This document shows positions 1-20,778 of a stretch of DNA of 32,000 nt, in pieces. A program made the position numbers and the translations under genes. The stretch comes from Candidatus Baldrarchaeota archaeon (GTDB lineage Archaea; Asgardarchaeota; Baldrarchaeia; Baldrarchaeales; DXJG01), in assembly GCA_019056805.1 (NCBI GenBank), contig DXJG01000002.1:493103-525102 (forward strand), read 5' to 3'. The notes beneath the pieces were generated by a model. That model searched no databases, was not told the origin of the DNA, and was given only the letters and a program-made list of their open reading frames with translations. Every line of letters begins with the position of its first letter. Within the stretch, counting starts at the first letter, position 1.

Positions 1-390
1 GTTATCTGGAAAGGAAAAAACGAACTTGAAGCAGATATAAGAGGAGCAAAATTAATTGTAAGAACAGTTGAAGAAGAGGAGAGGGGCCCGACAGCATCAG
101 AGTTACTATTAGCAGCGCTTGGAAGTAGTTTAGCAACAGAATTACTTAAAGAAGCTAGAAAAATGAGAGTCTCCATCAACAATGTAGAAATTAAAGTAAA
201 AGGAGTTCAAACAGGCAAGAAAATCCCAAGATTTACAGACATTAATGTACAAGTATCAACAACTACAGTTCAAGGTGAAGATACAAAGAAACTACAAGAA
301 TTAGTAAGGCGGTTAGAAAGAAACTCCATAGTAAGTAACACATTAAAAGAACAGACAAAAGTAAGGGTAAAAACAACCTTTGAAACATAG
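1..390 (+). CDS. OsmC/YhfA-like protein, 5'-partial; both family cysteines are Ser
   Basis: Frame 1 is open from base 1: VIWKGKNELEADIRG...GPTASELLLAALGSSLATEL...LERNSIVSNTL. This matches the OsmC pattern GPxPxELLLAALGxC...CxVSNTL with Ser at both Cys positions. The track start at 163 is internal. Confidence 0.75.
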   Translation, partial: VIWKGKNELEADIRGAKLIVRTVEEEERGPTASELLLAALGSSLATELLKEARKMRVSINNVEIKVKGVQTGKKIPRFTDINVQVSTTTVQGEDTKKLQELVRRLERNSIVSNTLKEQTKVRVKTTFET

Positions 391-424
391 AGAATTCTGA
401 AATCGAAATTACCAAGTGATATAC

Positions 425-955
425 ATGAGTGAAACTTCGAAAAAACATAAAGAAGAAGCTCCAAAAAAACTTACATTTGCAGTAATAACAGTAAGCTCAT
501 CAAGATACGAAAAACAAATGAAAGGAGAAAAAGCAGCAGACATTTCAGGCAATCTAATAATTAAATTATTAAAAAACGCTAACCACGACGTAAAATTATA
601 TAAAATAATTCCTGATGATATACTTGAAATAAGAAAAACATTAACAGACGCAATACATGAACATAAAATTGACGTTATAATATTTTCAGGTGGAACCGGA
701 GTTTCAAAGAAAGATGTAACAATAGAAGCTATCTTACCTCTACTTGAAAAAGATATTCCAGGATTCGGAGAAATATTTAGATTTTTATCATTTCAAGAAA
801 TAGGAACAGCAACCATCGTTACAAGAGCTATAGCCGGAATTTATAGAAATACCTTAATTTTTTGTATTCCAGGTTCACCGCAGGCAGCAAAACTAGCAGT
901 TGAAAAACTAATTTTACCGGAAGCACCTCACATAATAAAACACACAAAAGAATAA
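425..955 (+). CDS. moaB: Molybdenum/tungsten cofactor biosynthesis protein B (MoaB/MogA family)
   Basis: Motifs VITVSSSR, GGTGVSKKDVT, PGFGEIFR, PGSPQAA. ATG at 425 preferred over GTG at 416. Confidence 0.92.
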   Translation: MSETSKKHKEEAPKKLTFAVITVSSSRYEKQMKGEKAADISGNLIIKLLKNANHDVKLYKIIPDDILEIRKTLTDAIHEHKIDVIIFSGGTGVSKKDVTIEAILPLLEKDIPGFGEIFRFLSFQEIGTATIVTRAIAGIYRNTLIFCIPGSPQAAKLAVEKLILPEAPHIIKHTKE

Positions 956-991
956 AAGAATAAGAGATAAAGAGTGATAGCGAAGCTATTG

Positions 992-1168
992 CTATTCAAA
1001 TGATATGGCGTTGTTTGGACAAGCTGCTTCACATGCTTGGCACTCACTACATTCATCTGGGTTAGCTACGTATGCTTTGTCATCTTGAATCTCTAGAACA
1101 CCCATTGGACATGTATCGATACATGTTCCGCATCCAGTACATTTCTCTAAATCAATTTTCGGCGGCAT
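992..1168 (-). CDS. 2x[4Fe-4S] dicluster ferredoxin, 58 aa (not in ORF track)
   Basis: Manual translation MPPKIDLEKCTGCGTCIDTCPMGVLEIQDDKAYVANPDECSECQACEAACPNNAISFE gives two CxxCxxCxxxCP motifs. AGGTGA RBS upstream. Confidence 0.95.
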   Translation of the reverse strand: MPPKIDLEKCTGCGTCIDTCPMGVLEIQDDKAYVANPDECSECQACEAACPNNAISFE

Positions 1169-1459
1169 AGCTATTCACCTCAAAAACCTAACTTCAAATA
1201 CCAATATAAATTTTAGTACTCAAAATCGGGAAGATTAAGTTAAATCTAATCAAACCTAATACTATGGAAATACGTCTTTAACTTATAACTAAGTAAAAAC
1301 TGTTATATCCAAACGATTTACAAATAATTGCTAAATTATCACAAAGCATAATATTCCGTTTTTAAATTATAATTTACAGTAAAAAGATACTCAGGCTATA
1401 ATCGTTCAGAAATATATTAGCGTCTTTATAACGAGTTATGGTCCCATTGAGGTGTTTTT

Positions 1460-1894
1460 ATGAAGCTTCTAAGGATTAATGCTGGCGATAGAAGGGCAAA
1501 GGAGAAGGGAAAACTTCTCATACACGGCGAATGTATAAAAGATATGTGGCCACAATTTTTTGAAAAATTTTCGGAAGACCATTTTCCTGCTGCGGTGTGT
1601 TTAGAAGCAGAACACATGAATATGGTTGCCTTCAAATTAGCTACAATAATAAAAAACATAAAACCAAAAGAAGTAACAGTTCTAACGGTAGACGGTTCAC
1701 CGCATTGCGTTCAACTTCATATGATGGTAGAGGAAGTTAGAAAAATAGTAGAAAACTTAAGCCCCCATACAAATTACAAATATTATGTCGTAAATAAAGG
1801 AGAACTAATAGAAATACCTAGAGAATGCATAAAAACCAGTAGATACCTATCAAAAATAAAAAAATTAATTAAAACAAAACCAAAATACCAATAA
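1460..1894 (+). CDS. Conserved putative Fe-S-binding protein (stand-alone form of a domain usually fused to dicluster ferredoxins)
   Basis: HGEC...AVCLEAEH...KLATIIK...VTVLTVDGSPHC resembles the AADC...IGCPKLD...ITVVRMEVPCC pattern. GAGGTG RBS. Family assignment from memory. Confidence 0.55.
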   Translation: MKLLRINAGDRRAKEKGKLLIHGECIKDMWPQFFEKFSEDHFPAAVCLEAEHMNMVAFKLATIIKNIKPKEVTVLTVDGSPHCVQLHMMVEEVRKIVENLSPHTNYKYYVVNKGELIEIPRECIKTSRYLSKIKKLIKTKPKYQ

Positions 1895-1920
1895 CATTTA
1901 GAGTAGAGAGTGAATAAACC

Positions 1921-2607
1921 TTGAAAGTAGAACTCATAAGTTATACCCCGAATCCAGAACTACTTGTAGCCTCAGCTGCCAGAACATGCTACTCAAAAAA
2001 ACCAGCAAGCCAAATAATCAAAAAAATAACACACAAAAGAGCCAGCAAACTAATCAAAAAACTCGTAAAAATCGGGCACCACAGTATTTTAGAACACATA
2101 GCCTTCACCTTTAGCGTAGAAGGAATCTCGCGAGCATGCAGTCATCAGCTAATCCGGCATAGAATAGCGTCGTATAGTCAACAGAGCCAAAGATATGTAT
2201 CGCTTGAAAACACGGATTTTGTAATGCCTTCGACGATAAGAAAGAATGAAAAAGCGAAAGAACTATTCAATCGAATTGTGAAAGAAGCAAAGAACGCGTA
2301 TAAGAAATTGTTAGAGTTAGGAATACCAGAAGAGGATACAAGATATATTATTCCTCAAGCAGTGCAAACAAACATTGTAGTAACTATGAATGCAAGAGAA
2401 CTTCTTCACTTTTTTAACTTAAGATGTTGTATGAGAGCGCAGTGGGAAATAAGAGCATTAGCTTGGAGGATGCTAAGCATAGTTAAAAAAGTGGCACCAA
2501 CAATATTTGAGAACGCAGGACCACCATGTATATCAGAAGGAAGATGCCCAGAAGAAGATTTCCCATGCAAATTAAGAAAAATACTAGAAAAAGGTGGAAA
2601 AAAATGA
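1921..2607 (+). CDS. thyX: FAD-dependent thymidylate synthase
   Basis: ThyX signature SRACSHQLIRHRIASYSQQSQRY, plus GHHSILEH, MNAREL, AQWEIR. Confidence 0.97.
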   Translation: MKVELISYTPNPELLVASAARTCYSKKPASQIIKKITHKRASKLIKKLVKIGHHSILEHIAFTFSVEGISRACSHQLIRHRIASYSQQSQRYVSLENTDFVMPSTIRKNEKAKELFNRIVKEAKNAYKKLLELGIPEEDTRYIIPQAVQTNIVVTMNARELLHFFNLRCCMRAQWEIRALAWRMLSIVKKVAPTIFENAGPPCISEGRCPEEDFPCKLRKILEKGGKK

Positions 2608-3428
2608 AAATATCGACAAAACCAGTAATAGCCATAATAGGACATAAAAACTCAGGAAAAACACTACTAATAGAAAAACTAGTTAAAGAATTAGTAAAGA
2701 AAGGATACAAAGTGGCATCTGTCAAACACATAGGTAGAAAAGGACACGGATTCGACATGCCAAGAAAAGATACAACAAAACACCTAGAAGCAGGCGCAAA
2801 TCCAGTAATAGCAATAACAGAAGACCAAATAATAACAATAAAGAAAACTCATATCGAAAACCCCCTAGAAACTCTATGGGAAAATATCCCAGAAAAAATT
2901 AACATAGTGTTCTTGGAAGGGTTTTCAACCTGGACATTAAGTAATGAAAACATCCCCAAAATAATTTGCATTAGAAATAAAGAAGATCTAAAGGAATATC
3001 AAGAAAAAGCCAAAAATACGCTACTTTTTGGAAGTTTAAAAAGAATAGAAAATGAAAAAATACTACATATAATTGAAGACTTCCGTGAAATCTTAGAAAA
3101 AACCATATCATACATAAAAAATCAAGAGAAACTCATAGAGGTGTATAATCTTTTACCTAGATTAAATTGCGGGAAATGCCGATTCAAAACATGTTTTAAT
3201 CTAGCTAAAGCAATTCTAGATAATAAGGCTTCAAAAGAAGAATGTGTAGTGTTAACACAGAAAAAAGGAATTAAAATTTTAATTGATGGGAAAGAAATAC
3301 CAGTAACATCTTTTGTTGAAAAAATAGTGAAGACTACGATTTTATCTATGCTATCAACTCTAAAGGGAGTTAATATAGAGGATGAACAAAAGGCTAAGTT
3401 AAAAATAGAGGTAGAAACATCAAATTAG
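2604..3428 (+). CDS. mobB: Molybdopterin-guanine dinucleotide biosynthesis protein MobB with C-terminal Fe-S domain
   Basis: P-loop GHKNSGKT, VASVKH, DTTKHLEAGA, LEGF, and a C-terminal LNCGKCRFKTC...C motif. Start set at ATG 2604 (ATGA overlap with thyX stop). Confidence 0.9.
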   Translation: MKISTKPVIAIIGHKNSGKTLLIEKLVKELVKKGYKVASVKHIGRKGHGFDMPRKDTTKHLEAGANPVIAITEDQIITIKKTHIENPLETLWENIPEKINIVFLEGFSTWTLSNENIPKIICIRNKEDLKEYQEKAKNTLLFGSLKRIENEKILHIIEDFREILEKTISYIKNQEKLIEVYNLLPRLNCGKCRFKTCFNLAKAILDNKASKEECVVLTQKKGIKILIDGKEIPVTSFVEKIVKTTILSMLSTLKGVNIEDEQKAKLKIEVETSN

Positions 3429-3952
3429 ACTTTCAATCTAAACTTTATTTCTTCTTCTCCTCCAATCTTATCTCCTTTTCTAGCCCATAAAACCATAAAA
3501 TTACCATAAATATCCTTATTCATGTAGGTTTTTACATCTAAAATTTTAGTACCAGTTGGAAAACACCAATAAGCTTCACAATCATACTCTAAAGTTTCCT
3601 CCTCATAAATAGATCTATAAATGTTAACACCACGTCTAAATCTACCCTTAAAATTAATTATCCAAATGAAATAGGGAAGGGTACCACTACCTCGATGTTG
3701 AATATCCATAAAAATAACACGAGGTCTGACACGCACACCATTAATATAAAGCTCTCCCTCATCAAGAATTGACTGCATATTCGACCATAACTTGTCAACT
3801 TCACGAACAAATTCTTTCTCTTTATGAGTTAATTTACGATAATATTCCTCTTCATCATAATAATCGTAAATTAATGTCTGAAAAAACTCACCATTGTTGG
3901 AAACGAAGAAAAAACTCTCAGCGTGCAATGGAATAATTTTATCTTTTATCAT
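3425..3952 (-). CDS. Hypothetical protein (175 aa, aromatic/beta-rich)
   Basis: Long ORF filling the gap, protein-like composition, GGTGG RBS upstream. No motif recognised. Confidence 0.7.
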   Translation of the reverse strand: MIKDKIIPLHAESFFFVSNNGEFFQTLIYDYYDEEEYYRKLTHKEKEFVREVDKLWSNMQSILDEGELYINGVRVRPRVIFMDIQHRGSGTLPYFIWIINFKGRFRRGVNIYRSIYEEETLEYDCEAYWCFPTGTKILDVKTYMNKDIYGNFMVLWARKGDKIGGEEEIKFRLKV

Positions 3953-4069
3953 AAAACCACCACATTATATTGCAACAAAAGGAAATTTCGGTGTAAAACC
4001 TAAAATATGTTATGTTTGATGTTCTATCACTTAGCAGCCTAAAAATATTTATATTGTGCAGTTGAACTG

Positions 4070-4567
4070 TTAAGGTCTAAACCGACGTCGTGGAGGAGGT
4101 TTTATTCCACGTTTCTTCAATTGTCTTATCATGTATAGTCTAAAGAAGTACATGTAAACTGTGTAGAAGAACAACCCGTAAACCAGACCAAGAATAGCTA
4201 AAAATACAATACTAGAAGCAACTACGGATAATTGATAAGCTTCAATAAACGTAGCACTTCCAGTTACGGCATAGAGTAAAATATCACCTACAAACCTTGA
4301 TATAGGAAATAAAATAGCCCATGCCAATGCCATCTGTAAAAATGGAATTTTTACTCTTGAAATCAAAGGTGTCTTTAAATACACAATGTCAACAGGATAG
4401 CTAAAGACAGCTAATGAAACAAATGTTATAATAACCCATGTAATGGACATTGAAGTCATATAAAACCTAGTAATTAAATTCAATATACCAAGAAGTACAG
4501 CTGGTATTAAACTACACAAGACACCAAGCCATCTCATATAAATTAACTTAGGCGGCCTATGAAACAA
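4070..4567 (-). CDS. Hypothetical membrane protein (about 4 TM helices, basic C-tail)
   Basis: Alternating hydrophobic segments. TTG at 4567 after GGGGG preferred because the track start (4597) overlaps the upstream small gene. Confidence 0.7.
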   Translation of the reverse strand: MFHRPPKLIYMRWLGVLCSLIPAVLLGILNLITRFYMTSMSITWVIITFVSLAVFSYPVDIVYLKTPLISRVKIPFLQMALAWAILFPISRFVGDILLYAVTGSATFIEAYQLSVVASSIVFLAILGLVYGLFFYTVYMYFFRLYMIRQLKKRGIKPPPRRRFRP

Positions 4568-4891: not shown

Positions 4892-6358
4892 TTACTTGAA
4901 TTGCAGTGGCAGGTACATTACGAAGAAGACGTACCAGAAGATCAGTGTAGAAATCAGCAGGAAGATAAATGGAATCCACGTTGGCCTAACTTTCTCCTTA
5001 GCCGGGTGAATCTTTGGCAATAGGAACCAGTTCAAATACAGTAGCCCGACACAGTAAATGCACATTATTAACATGTTTCCGACACCGGTCAGAACAAGAA
5101 GCACTCCAGGTCTCTTTGCTATTACCTGATACATTGCTATTACTGTGAATATTGTAACTACAATGTAGTAAAGCTTTCTATATTCGATCTTCCTTGTCTG
5201 CGGGACGTTGGTATATATGTTACTTGCAACAGTCCTTGAAATACCGTCTAAACCAGTTAGATAAGTGTCAGCAAGGAAGAAGAATCCAAGTACATAGAAT
5301 ATATTTCTTCCAGCAGCTCCCCAGAGTTCAGCAAACCATTCGCCCTGAATTACAACTATATCGAAACCGGTGGGTATGAGGCCTTCTGGATGTAAAATAC
5401 CAAGAGAGAGCAGCGATGTCAAAACGATAGTTAGTGTATTTAATATAACTCCAAAAGCATTGTCGCACCATAGCCATTTAACCCAGGCTTTCCATTCATC
5501 TATATCTTTCTCTGTAAATGCAACTCCTACGCCTGGAATTGGTTCAGGTTTTCCTGTGATTGGGCTTGTTACTCTTCCGATTAGCGCAGACATTCCAGCG
5601 TTCTTGTCTCTAACCCAGAAGGAATAGTATAGGTTCCAGAAGCCACCAGCACCAGTGTAACAAATCAATGTAACAAGCTTACCTGTGTCTGCAGGATCCC
5701 AGTTTGGTGGTGTAAGTGGTATATGTGGTGTAAATAGAGCAGCAAAAAATTCACCAACAACTGCATGTACTGCTGGGGCAGCAATAACGATAACCAACAT
5801 TCCAAAGAAGCTTGCAATTGCTGCAATAGATTCTACAACTTCAACTATACGATATGCCACGGGACCTAACAAAAACAATATAAACACTATGATAAGACAT
5901 AGTTCCGCCCAGAAATGTGTTTGAGCTTTGTCCGACCATCCGGGTGGGAAGTTTGTAAGAGCTTTTAGCGCTGTGGCTCCAGCTGATATATATCCTCCTA
6001 TCCAGAAGGATACTATTATAACCATGACAAATATTAGCCATCCGAAGAGATGGTGTATTCTGTGAAATCCTTCATATATTGACTCTCCTGTCGCTATTGA
6101 ATATCTTGCTATCTCCAAGTTAACCCAGTATTGTAGTGATGCCCATATGAACATCCAGCCAAGGAAGTAGGTACCGTATTTTGCAACCATGTATGGCCAC
6201 CAAATTAACTCACCGCTACCTTGGGAAAGCCCTGCCCATACTAGTCCTGGTCCAAACATTGCTACCCATCCGGGCCACTTAGGCATATCTTTTACGTCCC
6301 ATGGTTCTTCAAGTTTGCCAGCAATTATTTCAGATGCAGATGGATTTTTTTCTGCCAT
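4892..6358 (-). CDS. Nramp/APC-superfamily secondary transporter (substrate unknown)
   Basis: FGPGLVWAGLSQGSGELIWWP...KYG N-terminal motif and about 11-12 hydrophobic segments. GGGG RBS. Confidence 0.8.
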   Translation of the reverse strand: MAEKNPSASEIIAGKLEEPWDVKDMPKWPGWVAMFGPGLVWAGLSQGSGELIWWPYMVAKYGTYFLGWMFIWASLQYWVNLEIARYSIATGESIYEGFHRIHHLFGWLIFVMVIIVSFWIGGYISAGATALKALTNFPPGWSDKAQTHFWAELCLIIVFILFLLGPVAYRIVEVVESIAAIASFFGMLVIVIAAPAVHAVVGEFFAALFTPHIPLTPPNWDPADTGKLVTLICYTGAGGFWNLYYSFWVRDKNAGMSALIGRVTSPITGKPEPIPGVGVAFTEKDIDEWKAWVKWLWCDNAFGVILNTLTIVLTSLLSLGILHPEGLIPTGFDIVVIQGEWFAELWGAAGRNIFYVLGFFFLADTYLTGLDGISRTVASNIYTNVPQTRKIEYRKLYYIVVTIFTVIAMYQVIAKRPGVLLVLTGVGNMLIMCIYCVGLLYLNWFLLPKIHPAKEKVRPTWIPFIFLLISTLIFWYVFFVMYLPLQFK

Positions 6359-6511
6359 TTCCCTCTACCCCTAACAATTTTTAATTTCACGTACCCTTTT
6401 CTCTACTATTATTGAACGGTCTTATATAATCTTTACGACCATGTTTAGGTACATTTTTACATATGAAAAGAACTCTGTAAAGTACTCGTGGAATACTCAT
6501 ACCAACTTATG

Positions 6512-6539
6512 TTTAATAATGCATATTTAATAATGCATA
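6512..6539. repeat. 14-bp perfect tandem direct repeat (TTTAATAATGCATA x2)
   Basis: Read directly: 6512-6525 and 6526-6539, centred between divergent genes. Each unit contains the palindrome ATGCAT. Confidence 0.85.
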
Positions 6540-6695
6540 ATTATCTTTATGTAAAAAATAAATTAAAAATTAAAGTTCTGTTCTTCCGATTTTTGACGTC
6601 GCTATATATCTGGTAAAAATAAATAACACACACTATTATTATGTACCATGATGTACCTTACCTAACCTAAGTAGTGTTAAAGGTGTAGATATGCG

Positions 6696-8072
6696 ATGAT
6701 TAAAAATTATTCAGAGCTAATTGAAAACGGCTTTACACCCAAGAATAGAGATGCAAGACGTATAATATTAGATTGTATTTTAGCTGCCTTAAATACTGTA
6801 GATCCCCCGAAAGCGATTTTCAACAATGTTAAACTTGAAAATAATACTTTATCAATTGGCCATTACAATTTTAATCTAGCAGACTATAAAAATATCTACG
6901 TTCTAGGTGGAGGAAAAGCAAGCGGCTTAATGGCTGAAACAATCGAAACAATATTACAAGACAGAATAAGCGAAGGAGTTGTAAATGTCCTAAAGGGAAC
7001 AGAAAAAAGAGTAAAAACAAAGAAAATCAAAATTAACGGTGCAACGCATCCAATACCAGGAGAAGAGGGGATGAATGGAGTAAAAAATATGCTTGAAATA
7101 GCCAAAAAAGCAGGTAAAAACGATTTAATTATTGTTTTAATTTCAGGAGGCGGTTCAGCTTTAATGCCATACCCAGCTGAACCTGTAACGTTAGAAGAGA
7201 AAAAGAAGGTTACAGACCTTCTCCTAAAATGTGGCGCTACAATAAATGAAATAAATGCTGTTCGAAAACACATATCAGCCTTTAAAGGAGGTCAACTTGC
7301 AAAAGCAGCTTACCCAGCGACAGTAATTAGCCTGATCATCTCTGATGTAGTCGGAGACCCCTTAGACGTTATAGCTTCCGGTCCAACTGTACCAGATACC
7401 TCTACATTCCAAGATGCCTATAAAGTCTTGAAAAAATACAATATATTAGATAAAGTTCCTAAAGCTGTAAGAGAAAGAATCGAGTTAGGACTATCAGGTG
7501 AAATCGAAGAAACTCCAAAGCCAGGCGACAAAGTTTTTGAAAAAGTATACAACGTGATCGTAGCCAGTAATAGAACAGCATGTCTAGCAGCGGTGAAAAA
7601 GGCAAAAGAACTAGGAGCGAATTCTATACTACTTTCAACCTATATCGAAGGAGAAGCAAGACATGTAGGCACGGTTCTTGCAGGAATAGCAAGAGAAATA
7701 CATGAATATGAAAATTTGATCAAAAAACCAGCAATTATCGTATGTGGCGGAGAAACAACTGTAACAGTTACTGGAAGCGGTAAAGGTGGTAGAAACCAAG
7801 AATTGGCACTAGGAGCAGCATTCAAAATCTCAGGTTTAGACGGTGTTGCTATTGGCTCAATTGGCACTGATGGTATTGATGGAATTTGTGATGCTGCAGG
7901 AGCTATTGTTGATGGTCAAACTCTAGAAAGATCGCAGAAATTAGGTCTTGACGCAATGGAATACTTATTGGATAACAATTCTTACGAGTTTTTCACAAAA
8001 CTTGGAGATGCAATTTTCACTGGTCCAACAGGAACAAATGTAAACGACTTGATGATTATTGCCGTTCTATAA
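6696..8072 (+). CDS. Glycerate 2-kinase (MOFRL/GckA family)
   Basis: GGGKAS, ISGGGSAL, ISDVVGD, IASGPT, GGETTV, GGRNQEL, TDGIDG, TGPTGTNVND. Confidence 0.93.
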   Translation: MIKNYSELIENGFTPKNRDARRIILDCILAALNTVDPPKAIFNNVKLENNTLSIGHYNFNLADYKNIYVLGGGKASGLMAETIETILQDRISEGVVNVLKGTEKRVKTKKIKINGATHPIPGEEGMNGVKNMLEIAKKAGKNDLIIVLISGGGSALMPYPAEPVTLEEKKKVTDLLLKCGATINEINAVRKHISAFKGGQLAKAAYPATVISLIISDVVGDPLDVIASGPTVPDTSTFQDAYKVLKKYNILDKVPKAVRERIELGLSGEIEETPKPGDKVFEKVYNVIVASNRTACLAAVKKAKELGANSILLSTYIEGEARHVGTVLAGIAREIHEYENLIKKPAIIVCGGETTVTVTGSGKGGRNQELALGAAFKISGLDGVAIGSIGTDGIDGICDAAGAIVDGQTLERSQKLGLDAMEYLLDNNSYEFFTKLGDAIFTGPTGTNVNDLMIIAVL

Positions 8073-15744: not shown

Positions 15745-16587
15745 ATGATGATCAAAATGAATACATCGCTCCAAAAAAAGCTACTTAAAATACTCGAAGA
15801 ATTAGGATTTACGCAAAATGAAGCCAAAATATACTTAGTTCTATTTTTCTCCGGCGCCCCGCTAAATGCATCCGAAATATCAAATTATTCAAATGTCCCC
15901 CGTCCCAATGTTTATGAAACAATAAATAAACTCATAGAAAAGGGTTTTGTTTTAAAAGAGGCCTCTAGTAGAGGAGGACGATATGTAGCTATTATACCTC
16001 AAGAAATGCTAGATATGCTACGTAAAAGATATGAACAACGCCTAAAACTAATCGATGAAACAATATTACAGTTTAAGGAAATGCTTAACAGGAGTTTAGG
16101 TGAATCTAAACTCTCAGCCATGAGTACAATAGAATTTATTAACGATGAAGAAAAAATCACTAGAATTATTGGAGAGGTCCTTGAATCTGCTCAATCCAAA
16201 CTAATTACAATCATCACCCCCGATGTCTTAGAGATCGAAGGGAAAAATATTGTTAGAATGCTTAGACGTTTGGCCAAAAGGAATGTGGATATTACCGTGG
16301 GAATAAAGACAAATGATGATTATAAGTACTATGTTCGTGAACTATCAAAAATCTCTACTTTATATCTCTGGACTTATGGCGAATTACCACTTGGTTGCTA
16401 TATTGCTGACGATACTAACTGCTTAGTTACATTAGTTGGGAAATGGTCACCAATTGTATCCTATAATGTTGGTATTTTTACCGGAAATCCACTATACACA
16501 AAATCCTTCGGATACTTCGCTCAAAAACTCCTAACATTGACGACACAAGAAATAGAGATAGTTAAAGAAATTCGTAGAAGAAGATAG
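15745..16587 (+). CDS. TrmB-family transcriptional regulator
   Basis: LEELGFTQNEAKIY...SEIS..SNVPRPNVYETINKLIEKGFV wHTH, followed by a TrmB-type effector domain. Confidence 0.9.
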   Translation: MMIKMNTSLQKKLLKILEELGFTQNEAKIYLVLFFSGAPLNASEISNYSNVPRPNVYETINKLIEKGFVLKEASSRGGRYVAIIPQEMLDMLRKRYEQRLKLIDETILQFKEMLNRSLGESKLSAMSTIEFINDEEKITRIIGEVLESAQSKLITIITPDVLEIEGKNIVRMLRRLAKRNVDITVGIKTNDDYKYYVRELSKISTLYLWTYGELPLGCYIADDTNCLVTLVGKWSPIVSYNVGIFTGNPLYTKSFGYFAQKLLTLTTQEIEIVKEIRRRR

Positions 16588-16608: not shown

Positions 16609-17199
16609 TTATCTTGTCTTTTTTATCTTCTGCAATCTCAACAATAGCTCTCTGGCTTGGGAGTTTTTTTCGAAGTATTCTCTTACAGGTTTCAAAAATT
16701 CTATTAGTGCCTCTGCCGCGGCATTTTTTAGATCCAATGGGTGAAGTTCACCCTTTAAATATATTTGTTCTAATTCGGGATAACTTTCAACAATTAAATC
16801 TCCACCATACTTTTCGGGTCTATGTATCTCTAATGTAAAATCATCTCGTGCAAATAATAAGTACTTATTTATTTCCATAATCGGATTAAATTCTATATCT
16901 TTTGGTGGACAATAAGCTTGTTTAATCTTTTTCCTTATATCTTCCGGTGTATCATGAACAAATATACATGTTTCAGGCAGACTTTTACTCATTTTCGTAT
17001 CTAAAAGAATTTCTTCTCTTGATTTTCCCGTAACATCCATCCTTCCTACCCCAGCCAAACCTGAGAGAAGAGGTGTATGAACAGCTACCGGCTTTCTTCT
17101 ACCAAGTTTCGGTGCAATATCCCTACATAACATGTGGACACTTCTTTGATCCATTCCACCATAAGCTACATCCACATCAAGAAGAAAAACATCTGCTGC
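16609..17199 (-). pseudogene. tyrS: 5'-truncated tyrosyl-tRNA synthetase (C-terminal ~196 codons intact; HIGH-motif half missing)
   Basis: AADVFLLDVDVAYGGMDQRSVHM...KMSKS...AYCP...LHPLDLK. An in-frame TAA (17200-17202) sits where the Gln of YPxMQAAD is expected, and I found no TyrRS similarity further upstream on the minus strand. Confidence 0.85.
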
Positions 17200-17214
17200 T
17201 TAGCGCGCGCTAAG
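17199..17214. repeat. Perfect 16-bp palindrome CTTAGCGCGCGCTAAG at the tyrS breakpoint
   Basis: Read directly and self-complementary. AACATC copies lie at 17188-17193 and 17215-17220. Confidence 0.9.
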
Positions 17215-17489
17215 AACATCAAAAATCTTACAGTTAAGTCCATTTATCCGCAATATTTTAAAATTCAGGTATTTTTCATATCTTGGGTGGAAGTGATGGT
17301 GCTTCAATGTCAAGAAGATTGCTTCAGAGAAAATATTCAGGACTTACGTAGATTCCTCTTCAGGGCTCTATATAGAAATTAAATTCTAATGTTATCGCGT
17401 GGATCTTAAAAATTCTTCTTCCTGATATTTCTATTGACCTTTTTGAGCGGAAGATTCCGAATATCACCTTCTGCTCTTAAAATTTAATG

Positions 17490-17510
17490 CAAGGGTTCTA
17501 GAGAACCTTG
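17490..17510. repeat. Near-perfect inverted repeat CAAGGGTTCTAGAGAACCTTG
   Basis: Arms CAAG(G)GTTC / GAACCTTG around TAGA, with one bulged base. Confidence 0.6.
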
Positions 17511-17669
17511 ATCTAACAGAAAGAAAACAAAAACTACGTTTCCCATAAGCTAGCCAGATAGTTCCTAGACTTCTATTATGCGAAAATGCTTTAAGTTAAA
17601 TTTTTCAAAGTTGTTAAATTAACATGATATTCAGAAAAATAAAAGTTCAATAGAAGGAGGAATATAGAC

Positions 17670-18743
17670 ATGGATGTAGAAGAAAGATTAAATTTGATTA
17701 AACGACCACCAACAGAAGAAATAATAACAGAAGAGGAGTTAAGAGAGCTTCTAGAAACCACTACCCATCCTAAGCATTACATAGGATTTGAAATTTCCGG
17801 TTTATTACACTTAGGAACTTTAATAATATGTGGTTATAAGATAAATGACTTAGCAGAAGCTGGTGTTGACGTTACAGTTTATCTTGCAGATTGGCATAGT
17901 TTTATCAATAAAAAGCTAGGTGGAAACTGGGAAAACATTCTAAAGGCTGCAAAGTATTATGAGAAAGCTTTTAAATTCTTTTGTCCCAAAGCAAAAATTG
18001 TTCTTGGATCAGAATTATATCATCATAACGATGAGTATTGGAAAGATGTTATAAGATTCTCTTCGCATATAACGTTGGCCAGGAATGTACGTTGCCTAAC
18101 AATAATGGGAAGAAGTGAAAAGGAAAAATTAAATTTTGCGCAATATATTTACCCGCCCATGCAAGCTGTGGATATAAAATATCTGGGTGAAGATATACCA
18201 CATGGTGGGATGGATCAAAGAAAGGTTCATGTTTTAGCAAGAGAAGTATTTCCAAAACTTGGTTGGAAAAAACCCGTAGCACTTCATCATCATTTGTTAA
18301 TGGGTTTGGCAGGACCACCGAGAATAAAAACTAAGGATAAATTAGAGAAAGTAATTGCAATGAAAATGAGTAAAAGCAAACCATGGACATGTATATTTAT
18401 TCATGACTCTGAAGAACAAATAAAGAAAAAACTATTAAAAGCATGGTGTCCCGAGAGGCAGGTTGAATTCAACCCTGTATTAGAATTGGTTAAATACATA
18501 ATTTTTCACGAAAAAAAGGAGTTCTTAGTTGAGAGGGAAAGTAAACATGGCGGAGATATAGTTTTTTCTTCTTATGAAGAGTTGGAAAAAGAATACATTA
18601 AAGGGAATCTCCATCCTTTAGATTTGAAACTATCTGTCGCGCGAGAAATCTCAAATATACTAGATCCCATCAGGAAGTATTTTGAAAGACCATCAAATAG
18701 GAAATTGTTAAACGTTTTTAAAGAAGTTAAAATTATAAGATAG
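17670..18743 (+). CDS. tyrS: Tyrosyl-tRNA synthetase, archaeal type, full length
   Basis: YIGFEISGLLHLGT (HIGH), LADWH, YPPMQAVD, GGMDQRK, KMSKS, LHPLDLK. GGAGG RBS. Confidence 0.96.
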   Translation: MDVEERLNLIKRPPTEEIITEEELRELLETTTHPKHYIGFEISGLLHLGTLIICGYKINDLAEAGVDVTVYLADWHSFINKKLGGNWENILKAAKYYEKAFKFFCPKAKIVLGSELYHHNDEYWKDVIRFSSHITLARNVRCLTIMGRSEKEKLNFAQYIYPPMQAVDIKYLGEDIPHGGMDQRKVHVLAREVFPKLGWKKPVALHHHLLMGLAGPPRIKTKDKLEKVIAMKMSKSKPWTCIFIHDSEEQIKKKLLKAWCPERQVEFNPVLELVKYIIFHEKKEFLVERESKHGGDIVFSSYEELEKEYIKGNLHPLDLKLSVAREISNILDPIRKYFERPSNRKLLNVFKEVKIIR

Positions 18744-20091
18744 AAACTATATTTTTGATGGTTTTTCCAAAGTCTGTTAATTCCCAACATTCTTGATTAT
18801 TTTTTCCGCTAACTCGTCTAACAATACCGCTTTTTTCCATCGATTTTAGAAGTCGCATAATAAAATAGCCGTTTCTTCTTATGGAATTTTGAAGCTCGAG
18901 CGTTGTAAACTTAGAATTCATAATGTTAAGGTAGCTTAGTACTCTATATTTTCGATGAGATTTTAAAGCATATGCGAGTATATTGAATTGTTTGGAATCC
19001 TTAGGAAAGATTTGCATAATTTCAATTAAGCTGCGCCAGTTCAAGTACGAGGTCAAGATGAAAAGGTTTCTTGCTTTAGATTTTTTAATTTTACCTTTAA
19101 TGTTCACATGACTCAGTATTTTTTCATAATCTTTTATGTACTGTTCATTGCTTTCAAAAATTTGTAATCTCACATTTAAAGAATTGTTTTTGTCTCTATA
19201 ACAATATACATTACCATCTCCAAGTAACAGTCCTTGTAAAAAGAATTTTAGTATGTCCTTATCAGGATTAGATTTTGTTAAATATCTTCTAATTTCATTC
19301 ATTGCATTATAGCAAAATTCCGCCAGTAAGGAATTTGTTACCCAAAGTTTAATTGTAAATTCTTTTACTCTTTCTATTTTTCTTGTGAAAATATTTTTGT
19401 TTGGAATTCCAAGTTTGATCAAAAATGACTTTACTTTTTTGACTTGATTAAACTTTGGATTTATTGAGATAGTCGCATTGAATAACGATATATCAATAAA
19501 AGTTTTAGATAGTTGAAGAAAGTCAGAAATGATTGTCAACGACTTATTAGTAAAGCTAAATTCCCTTCCCCTGCGCCGCTTTAGAATGGTTTTTCCCCCT
19601 TCCGCTTGTAGATAACCCAACAATTTTGCAAAACTCTTCGAAACGTATCTGTTAAACACTATTTCTTTAGGTCTACCTTTAGCTGGATACCACAAAAATA
19701 TATTATTTTTATAACACCTACAACATATAGGAAAACCTGACATAGTTTTTTGGATTAAAAAGTAAAGTAGATCTATAGAATTCCCATTTAACATTTTAGT
19801 TGGTTTCTGTGCAGCTTCCACTTTTTTAATATGCATAGTGATGATTTGACCTTTTTTTAGTTGGAGAGCTTCTCTACACTTTTTGGGAATAATGATTCTC
19901 CTTCCCTTGGTGAAATAAGTAACAAAAAATTTAGTTCCAATATTCGTAGTTATTCCTATCTCCAAAAATCCATTGTTTATCTTATTTTGTATTTGAGCTG
20001 GTACCCAAATACGATTACCTTTGTATACTAGTTTCAATTTCATACATATTTGTGGTTTTGAATTAATAAAAAGTCCACCATTTTGTATCAA
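18733..20091 (-). CDS. Free-standing double-LAGLIDADG endonuclease-like protein with N-terminal AbrB/SpoVT-like and C-terminal winged-helix-like regions
   Basis: LAGLIDADG-like helices AKLLGYLQAEGG and FFLQGLLLGDGN with acidic residues retained. KGRRIIIPKKCREALQLKKGQII is AbrB-like. FTTLELQ...LLKSMEKSGIV...WELTDFGK is wHTH-like. Start uncertain (TTG 20091 or ATG 20043). Confidence 0.75.
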   Translation of the reverse strand: MIQNGGLFINSKPQICMKLKLVYKGNRIWVPAQIQNKINNGFLEIGITTNIGTKFFVTYFTKGRRIIIPKKCREALQLKKGQIITMHIKKVEAAQKPTKMLNGNSIDLLYFLIQKTMSGFPICCRCYKNNIFLWYPAKGRPKEIVFNRYVSKSFAKLLGYLQAEGGKTILKRRRGREFSFTNKSLTIISDFLQLSKTFIDISLFNATISINPKFNQVKKVKSFLIKLGIPNKNIFTRKIERVKEFTIKLWVTNSLLAEFCYNAMNEIRRYLTKSNPDKDILKFFLQGLLLGDGNVYCYRDKNNSLNVRLQIFESNEQYIKDYEKILSHVNIKGKIKKSKARNLFILTSYLNWRSLIEIMQIFPKDSKQFNILAYALKSHRKYRVLSYLNIMNSKFTTLELQNSIRRNGYFIMRLLKSMEKSGIVRRVSGKNNQECWELTDFGKTIKNIVSIL

Positions 20092-20253
20092 TACTCGAAA
20101 TTTTTTAATTTATCAAAATCAAAGCTTGAACCTTATATTTATTTATAATCCCCCAGGAAGAGATAAAATTTTCAATACTTTTCGCTTTTCAGCAAGGAAA
20201 GTTTCGCTCTCCAAAAATATAAAAGAGAATATCTGTCTAATTTTTCTTACCTA

Positions 20254-20778
20254 TTATTTCTTCAATCTTTTCAATAATTGATGAATAAGATCTATTGCTG
20301 ATTCCAATAAGGAAAGTTCATACTCTATTTGTTTTTTCAATTGTTCCTTATATTCTTTACGAGTAATCGGATCTGATATTTGATTTATTTTCTCGAACCT
20401 ATTGACTAGCTTCCTAATCGATGGATATTTACTCAATATTTCCACATTTCTTTCCGTGTAGGGAGTTGATAATTGATGCACGTGTACACCCTTAGGTGAG
20501 ACTTCCAATAGAAGTGTTAGATTACGAGATATTTGAAAATATCTTCTAGGCGGCCCCCCTTCCACTGGCTTTATAAAAGAGTCAATTAGTCCACATCGAA
20601 GAAGTTTATCTATATATTTTTTAAGGACCCACCTATGCATATCCAGCTCTTCTATTAGTTGAGACCAATATTTTGGTTCATTAAGAGCTTGAAGTATTTT
20701 TAGACAGTTTCTACCCGAAAGAGCCTTTAACAGCTCTATTATGTCCTCTAATTCTTTTTCGGACTCTCTATTGGTCAT
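20254..20778 (-). CDS. ArsR-family wHTH regulator, Phr/HSR1-like heat-shock repressor candidate
   Basis: LLKALSG..CLKILQAL...LIEEL...KYIDKLLRCGLIDS...GGPPRRYFQI with a C-terminal coiled region. Divergent from Hsp20. Confidence 0.8.
   Translation of the reverse strand: MTNRESEKELEDIIELLKALSGRNCLKILQALNEPKYWSQLIEELDMHRWVLKKYIDKLLRCGLIDSFIKPVEGGPPRRYFQISRNLTLLLEVSPKGVHVHQLSTPYTERNVEILSKYPSIRKLVNRFEKINQISDPITRKEYKEQLKKQIEYELSLLESAIDLIHQLLKRLKK

Follow-up and report, generated by a model that had tools for sequence, protein, structure and literature searches.

We analyzed a stretch of 32,000 nucleotides (hereafter the window) from the Asgardarchaeota assembly of a Candidatus Baldrarchaeota archaeon (GCA_019056805.1; contig DXJG01000002.1, positions 493,103 to 525,102). 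Sequence comparisons suggest, with a probability that we put at roughly 0.65, that positions 17200-20253 of the window are a mobile cassette that displaced the native gene for tyrosyl-tRNA synthetase (tyrS). This cassette contains two genes: a xenologous intact tyrS (hereafter tyrX) and a gene encoding a nuclease-like protein that resembles I-DmoI and appears to belong to a tyrS-targeting family. A preliminary description of this DNA had proposed a selfish "cut-and-rescue" unit, i.e., a nuclease that travels together with a resistant copy of the essential gene that it cuts.

Organization of the tyrS Locus and the Empty Site

The tyrX gene (17670..18743, + strand; 357 aa) matches Pfam tRNA-synt_1b (4.8e-40) and has a HIGH-like HLGT motif and a KMSKS motif. 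Its end overlaps by 11 bp with a convergent gene that encodes a free-standing double-LAGLIDADG endonuclease-like protein of 436 aa with an I-DmoI-like predicted fold (18733..20043, - strand; Pfam LAGLIDADG_3). The open reading frame of this gene spans 18733-20091(-), and its probable start is the ATG at 20043, based on homologs and the database gene call. The remnant of the resident tyrS (16609..17199, - strand) is located on the strand opposite to tyrX and is divergent from it. The remnant comprises codons 169-364 plus the stop; its open reading frame (16609-17175(-); Pfam tRNA-synt_1b, 2.5e-20) has a frame that is open to 17199, giving 196 codons without an internal stop, and is closed by a TAA within a perfect 16-nt palindrome (17199-17214) that occurs only once in the genome. 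Open reading frames, Pfam matches, and direct reading of the sequence bear out the positions that the preliminary description had assigned to the broken tyrS, the palindrome, the intact tyrS, and the nuclease-like gene, and the overlap is exactly 11 bp as described. The gene order was likewise correct, with two amendments: the broken and intact genes are divergent, and the palindrome marks a secondary deletion rather than the primary junction (see below).

Sequence comparison confirmed that the remnant is the native tyrS and that tyrX is foreign, as had been proposed. The remnant has 85% amino acid identity to the tyrS of the cassette-free congener G001 and 67% to that of G004, a genome from the same order, whereas none of 40 genomes from the same phylum has a tyrS that shares more than 51% identity with tyrX. 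The amino acid identity between tyrX and the remnant is 48%. In G001, the tyrS is intact and has the arrangement ArsR-like > tyrS > < TrmB, collinear with the window on both sides. The DNA homology between the window and G001 breaks off precisely at 17199 and is regained near 20237, ~20 nt beyond the stop of the ArsR-like gene; the segment from 17200 to ~20253 (3.05 kb) occupies the place of ~600 bp in G001, namely, the intergenic/promoter region and the first 168 codons. G001 carries the empty site that the preliminary description had named as something to look for. The nuclease gene was not found in the 40 same-phylum genomes. In the genome of the window (1.92 Mb, 91% complete), this gene has a single copy and tyrX is the sole intact tyrS. 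The assemblies of two other congeners break on either side of the tyrS locus (G002, C19 end and C21 start; G003, C135 end), which would fit strain heterogeneity.

Both sides of the locus are flanked by host genes. On the left, a TrmB-family regulator gene (15745..16587, + strand; Pfam TrmB, 1.7e-17) is syntenic in G001 and G004 and is the conserved left neighbor of tyrS across the genus and the order. On the right, an ArsR-like winged helix-turn-helix (wHTH) gene (20254..20778, - strand; weak HTH_5/HTH_20 matches) has 70% amino acid identity to its counterpart in G001, where it is the right neighbor of tyrS. The remaining sequence consists of a junction filler of ~25-28 nt that includes the palindrome (17199..17227), a cassette spacer 5' of tyrX (17228..17669, + strand; ~86% nucleotide identity to L053 4485-4920, a contig introduced below), and the right cassette spacer with the right junction (20044..20253), where L053 is longer by 282 bp.

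A Second Cassette-Bearing Lineage and the Age of the Truncations

The same cassette was found at the same locus in a second congeneric lineage, represented by contigs from four samples (L053 and L081-L083). Between L081/L053 and the window, tyrX is 96% identical and the nuclease is 82% identical. The native remnant in L081/L053 covers codons 44-364 (321 codons, stop-free, 91% identity to G001) and is preceded by a 236-bp spacer. The cassette edge common to the window and L053 is …CTTAACTGTAA, after which the window has its 25-28 nt filler joined to codon 169. The longer remnant in L081/L053 indicates that the palindrome junction of the window (17199/17200) is the product of a later 612-bp deletion, which the filler replaces. 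The primary junction is located between bases 2 and 3 of the Gly43 codon, within the class I HIGH motif (EPSG|LVHLG). A match of CGGAGGAAGTT between the L053 spacer and codons 13-20 of G001 reached 28 vs. a shuffled-control maximum of 32 and was not used. A search for coding remnants in the spacers (17200-17669 in the window, 7328-8000 in L081, and 1675-2111 in L053) found no TyrRS or nuclease profile signal. In the contig L026, which is elsewhere 98.8% identical to L081, an IS607-like pair (1978-3888; a serine-recombinase/MerR-HTH gene and TnpB) is located between the nuclease gene and tyrX.

These contigs also bear on the possibility that an assembly or binning artifact joined the tyrS genes of two organisms. 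The genome is a metagenome-assembled genome (MAG) with an estimated contamination of 3.6%, which leaves some room for such an error. However, synteny with G001 extends to both sides of the locus, and four independent contigs from other samples have the same cassette at the same locus. Furthermore, a contig from a second sequencing run of the same study spans the junction (16895-17971), and identical pieces are present in three marine metagenome runs. We consider an artifact to be highly improbable.

For the cassette genes, the synonymous divergence (dS) between the window and L081 is 0.43-0.45. The corresponding values are 1.1-1.6 for the left flank (two PhoU genes, TrmB, and the remnant) and 0.6-0.8 for the right flank (the ArsR-like gene and a gene of 159 aa). 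In the left flank, L081 is nearer to the cassette-free G001 than to the window based on nonsynonymous divergence (dN). In the right flank, the window groups with L081. This unequal divergence places a recombination breakpoint at the left cassette edge. The remnants have dN/dS ratios of 0.05-0.06 (0.059 for that of the window) and no stop codons. When 0.22 neutral substitutions per site were simulated, a stop-free remnant was retained in none of 2000 replicates for the L081 type and in 0.2% for the window type. The stop-free and constrained state of the remnants, together with these simulations, indicates that the cassette copies split long before either truncation arose. We infer that the cassette entered the tyrS of distinct Baldrarchaeia lineages recently, probably through recombination that used the remnant at one end and the ArsR flank at the other. 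Alternatively, two differently truncated remnants could both have stayed under selection, which is less likely.

The two cassette genes differ in their constraint, with dN/dS ratios of 0.23 for the nuclease gene vs. 0.037 for tyrX. A frameshift at codon 76/77 of the nuclease gene is shared in the L081 lineage. The frameshift, the separation by an insertion sequence (IS), and the weaker constraint are what is usually seen when a homing endonuclease gene decays once it is fixed, and tyrX is still strongly constrained.

The Nuclease-Like Protein and Its Linkage to tyrS

The nuclease-like protein has two LAGLIDADG motifs, LLGYLQAEG and LQGLLLGDG (Pfam LAGLIDADG_3, 9.7e-6; 26.2 bits vs. a cutoff of 22.5). 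In an alignment of 20 members with 28-41% identity, E164 and G291-D292-G293, i.e., both LAGLIDADG acids, are invariant. The AlphaFold model has a mean predicted local distance difference test (pLDDT) score of 87.8 and shows a pseudo-dimeric alpha-beta-beta-alpha-beta-beta-alpha fold. Its top 19 PDB matches are all I-DmoI chains (Foldseek probability 1.0), with template modeling (TM) scores of 0.58-0.70 when normalized to the target and sequence identities of ~18-20%. The N-terminal region has a weak resemblance to MazE/AbrB, and the C-terminus has a weak match to winged-helix (wHTH) domains. We predict that this protein is an active nuclease, i.e., one that cleaves DNA.

A homolog search returned ~105 clusters at 50% identity, which correspond to ~50 loci mostly from Aenigmatarchaeota, Nanoarchaeota, and Woesearchaeota. 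Among the 34 informative distinct loci, mostly from DPANN archaea, tyrS is directly adjacent to the nuclease gene in 33. The layouts relative to tyrS are mostly convergent (several with the 11-bp overlap), some are divergent, and others are tandem. In the single exception, L059/L060, the homolog (1035-2159) does not have the C-terminal winged helix, and tyrS is absent from its surroundings; its neighbors are a small membrane protein gene and, judged by eye, a possible Cas4-like gene, and it may be located on another mobile element. The nuclease and TyrRS trees disagree, in that well-supported sister nucleases (L049/L074, L067/L068, L042/L046, and L044/L064) adjoin different deep TyrRS types. 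In 51 Aenigmatarchaeota genomes related to G041, the nuclease gene was found in only one, while tyrS was found in 48. This patchiness and the tree discordance fit a mobile element homing to tyrS, not a conserved enzyme partner. The family is patchily distributed, shares one target among unrelated hosts, and decays once fixed, all of which characterize mobility.

The preliminary description had acknowledged that its case rested on a single locus. This is no longer so, given the tyrS adjacency in the family and the recurrence of tyrS remnants described below. The nuclease neighborhoods are far from random. The tyrX gene groups with the nuclease-linked tyrS of L034, L058, L030, and L036. Genes of the tyrX type are also found in sequences labeled as Aenigmarchaeota, Micrarchaeaceae, Bathyarchaeota, and Geobacterales, which suggests wide horizontal spread. 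We found no paper that ties LAGLIDADG genes to archaeal tyrS.

The protein could instead be a domesticated DNA-binding regulator or tyrS partner with AbrB-like, LAGLIDADG, and winged-helix parts, co-inherited or co-transferred with tyrS as a module. The extra DNA-binding-like domains, the annotation of a homolog as an AbrB-family protein by the Joint Genome Institute (JGI), the tight adjacency to tyrS, and the conservation of the 11-bp overlap in several loci would all fit this reading. However, a domesticated WhiA-like regulator would have lost its catalytic residues and would show near-universal vertical inheritance. Here, both catalytic acids are invariant despite the low identity among members, the nuclease gene is rare among related genomes in which tyrS is nearly universal, the nuclease and TyrRS trees conflict, and the gene has three different orientations relative to tyrS. 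Furthermore, the gene is frameshifted or IS-separated in the L081-type genomes while tyrX is strongly constrained, and distant paralogs adjoin rtcB and a radical-SAM gene in the same manner (see below). These patterns make domestication quite unlikely.

Old tyrS Ends and Mini-Introns in Relatives

Old ends of tyrS were found beside the nuclease genes of relatives. At nine convergent loci, an old tyrS tail is located upstream of the nuclease gene in the same orientation as the intact tyrS. The distance from this tail to the nuclease start is 5 nt in L036 and L049, ~17-18 nt in L030 and L058, and ~250 nt in L052, and tails with a visible start begin at (L)HPLDLKN (~codon 314). In L030, L036, and L058, the intact gene is of the tyrX type and the old tail is of the FEPSG type; judging from these types, the three loci are further whole-gene displacements. 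Beyond the 3' end of the nuclease gene in L076/L048, a divergent locus, there is an old head comprising codons 1-39. Most family members bring only a replacement end of tyrS and no whole rescue gene. Three Aenigmatarchaeota genomes (G048, G054, and G093) each have two separate tyrS matches, which could be displacements in progress.

Distant paralogs were found beside other genes. In the Nanoarchaeota contig L098 (3609-6513), a paralog of 451 aa convergently overlaps rtcB, which encodes a tRNA-splicing ligase, by 23 bp, and a 24-residue remnant of the rtcB C-terminus was detected upstream of this paralog (E = 0.009, at the expected place). In L099, another paralog overlaps a radical-SAM gene by 24 bp.

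Eight Aenigmatarchaeota tyrS genes have an insert of 20-31 nt directly after FEPSG, which introduces stops or a frameshift and has the form of a bulge-helix-bulge element (L027 7745-7820, L028 7665-7730, L038 7760-7830, L045 150-225, L062 1-80, L076 7480-7560, L106, and L118). The genes split by these inserts were called as two genes of ~45 and ~300 aa. The first six of these loci are divergent nuclease loci, each with a mini-intron in its tyrS. Two genomes, G064 and G071, have an intron-bearing tyrS, yet no nuclease gene or remnant was found beside it. The close relatives of intron-bearing tyrS genes are intron-less. A few kb from the tyrS-nuclease pair of L027, a Toprim/topoisomerase gene of 1811 aa (1-4382) has two inteins with LAGLIDADG domains.

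The seven complete inserts have three to four of four central pairs, two 3-nt bulges, and 3-6 bp in the inner stem. With its weak outer helix, the bulge-helix-bulge motif is of a relaxed type. If the predicted cuts are placed between nucleotides 2 and 3 of each bulge, the frame and FEPSG-(I/M/L)-AHL are regained in all seven. The central helix covaries with the exon, with a change from U:A to C:G that follows the synonymous Ser codon. Based on these structures, the mini-inserts look like substrates of the splicing endonuclease. Ribosomal bypass was considered for these inserts and rejected; L028, the one sequence checked, has no matching downstream GGA codon for landing. The insert position is at most 2 nt from the L081 junction.

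Proposed Mechanism and Alternative Explanation

The analysis shows the anatomy of the locus with its empty site, the xenology of tyrX, and the young age of the truncations, and for the family it shows the linkage to tyrS, the tyrS remnants, and the discordance of the trees. Regarding the cut-and-rescue proposal, sequence comparisons strongly support mobility, tyrS specificity, and displacement of an essential gene, and the cutting step itself is what we infer. In favor of the proposal, a nuclease/tyrX unit was inserted in the resident tyrS (empty in G001) and the genome has no other intact tyrS; the part that does not fit is the non-canonical form of the insertion (see below). Under this proposal, members of the family in DPANN archaea would insert at HIGH (~codon 44) or at HPLDLKN (~codon 314), supplying a replacement head or tail of tyrS and leaving the old one behind. 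Insertion would start when the nuclease breaks the resident tyrS, and the recurring junctions at codons ~44 and ~314 suggest a cut at or close to the point of insertion. In Baldrarchaeia, tyrX would have been carried along in full, and the promoter and the first 43 codons of the native tyrS would have been replaced, a state kept in L081/L053. In the lineage of the window, the further 612 bp would have been deleted later, leaving the palindromic filler. The tyrX gene would be resistant to the nuclease; the resident-type and tyrX alleles differ at both candidate sites (HIGH and HPLDLKN). With the native gene dead and tyrX as the only tyrS, the cassette could no longer be lost.

Several observations weigh against this mechanism. 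The cassette lies in inverted orientation with respect to the remnant, and the insertion is unlike the canonical product of either class of the family. The tail profile found no old tyrS tail upstream of the nuclease start in the window or L053 (E > 2). The HPLDLKN sequence at codon 314 is intact in the remnant of the window; convergent-layout relatives join their old tails at ~314, so this sequence should be cut or mutated if it was the target in the window. Thermoproteota MAGs (L078-L086, tyrS at 6001-7074) have tyrX-type tyrS genes that are 82-83% identical to that of the window, and no nuclease gene or remnant was found nearby, with an uncalled gap of 390-780 bp downstream. These nuclease-less genes indicate that tyrX can also spread or persist alone. 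The GC content of the cassette, both overall and at third codon positions (GC3), is indistinguishable from that of the host, and the comparison of base composition suggested in the preliminary description gave no sign of foreign origin. Moreover, either flank may reflect the species tree, and the coincidence of the codon-44 junction with the mini-intron site is a post hoc observation.

Some of these observations would fit a passive displacement, in which tyrX and the nuclease gene arrived by ordinary horizontal transfer and illegitimate recombination, the redundant native tyrS decayed, and the nuclease was a hitch-hiker. The inverted and non-canonical insertion, the survival of the putative codon-314 site in the remnant, and the nuclease-less tyrX-type genes in other phyla are all in its favor, and horizontal transfer of aminoacyl-tRNA synthetase (aaRS) genes is common in general. 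However, a random hit on a tyrS of ~1.1 kb in a genome of 1.9 Mb has a chance of ~1 in 2000, and the same gene is occupied in two lineages with cassettes that are older than the truncations. In addition, tyrS remnants recur beside family members elsewhere, and the primary junction coincides with the mini-intron site. We consider passive displacement unlikely, and favor a mobile cassette that displaced the native tyrS.

Read as such a cassette, the locus is an archaeal chromosomal variant of the free-standing homing endonuclease elements previously worked out in phages. A broader generalization is tentative, and we regard it as possible rather than probable: this archaeal LAGLIDADG superfamily may act on essential genes as a natural cleave-and-replace drive that cuts conserved coding motifs of tyrS, with paralogs cutting rtcB and possibly other genes. 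The resistant replacement would range from an end of the gene, with or without protection by a mini-intron, to an entire xenologous gene, and the drive would actively cause xenologous aaRS displacement across DPANN, TACK, and Asgard archaea.

Genes encoding aaRSs are among the informational genes that are replaced horizontally most often, which is usually attributed to neutral drift or antibiotic selection. If the favored reading is true, a nuclease that targets the resident gene and brings its own replacement would be an active and selfish cause of aaRS replacement, and phylogenies that use TyrRS would call for caution. The nuclease family also provides a set of candidate endonucleases with long targets, for which the sites may be inferred.

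Comparison With Known Systems

Among characterized proteins, I-DmoI is likewise archaeal and is a single chain with two LAGLIDADG motifs and an acidic residue in each. However, I-DmoI is from a bulge-helix-bulge intron of archaeal 23S rRNA, whereas the protein of the window is free-standing and encoded beside a protein-coding gene. The latter also exceeds I-DmoI by ~250 aa and has an N-terminal region that resembles AbrB/MazE and a winged helix at its C-terminus.

The mini-introns resemble the bulge-helix-bulge intron of archaeal cbf5, which also has a relaxed motif and regains its frame through cuts between bulge nucleotides 2 and 3 (PMC2738675). As of 2009, such splicing had been confirmed for no archaeal protein-coding gene other than cbf5 (PMC2738675). 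The tyrS mini-introns differ in their gene, in their lineage (Aenigmatarchaeota), and in their link to a nuclease gene, and their splicing is predicted from the DNA sequence.

In the cyanophage S-PM2, the free-standing endonuclease F-CphI is encoded beside psbA, in which an endonuclease-less intron interrupts the target (PMC6083498). Such collaborative homing fits the combination of a mini-intron tyrS and a nuclease gene in Aenigmatarchaeota, and intron-only alleles also exist. The F-CphI case involves a group I intron, an Endo VII-like enzyme, and a phage, while tyrX in the window is uninterrupted (GFEISGLLHLG); the intron of collaborative homing is absent there and present in relatives only.

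The MobA element of T4-type phages (gene 39/60) has a free-standing endonuclease in an essential topoisomerase gene and a replacement target region; a 50-nt bypass insert ~45 codons into the downstream gene blocks self-cleavage, and pseudogenization or loss of the endonuclease is frequent (10.1101/2022.08.31.505936). The MobA/gene 60 element has a parallel in the divergent-type tyrS loci. As in MobA, the tyrS family has a fixed neighbor gene (33 of 34 loci), and a new segment is supplied while the old one is left behind. However, MobA is a phage HNH nickase with an insert that is removed by ribosomal bypass, whereas the tyrS family is of the LAGLIDADG type and resides in cellular archaeal chromosomes. 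Furthermore, MobA has a short homologous region, while the rescue in the window is a whole xenologous gene.

The logic proposed for the cassette is the same as that of cleave and rescue (ClvR), an engineered drive in which a nuclease acts against an essential gene and is linked to an uncleavable rescue, making carriers dependent on the element (PMC6442612). The linkage that this logic requires is found in the cassette, in which the two genes overlap by 11 bp and tyrX is the only intact tyrS of a genome that is 91% complete, and cleavage is predicted. The implementations differ: ClvR relies on Cas9 with guide RNAs, works in sexual eukaryotes, and targets a distant locus in trans, whereas the cassette is located inside the gene that it replaced. 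Unlike ClvR, the spread of the cassette would need DNA transfer between cells. If the favored reading is true, the chromosome of an Asgard archaeon contains a natural counterpart of engineered cleave-and-rescue drives.

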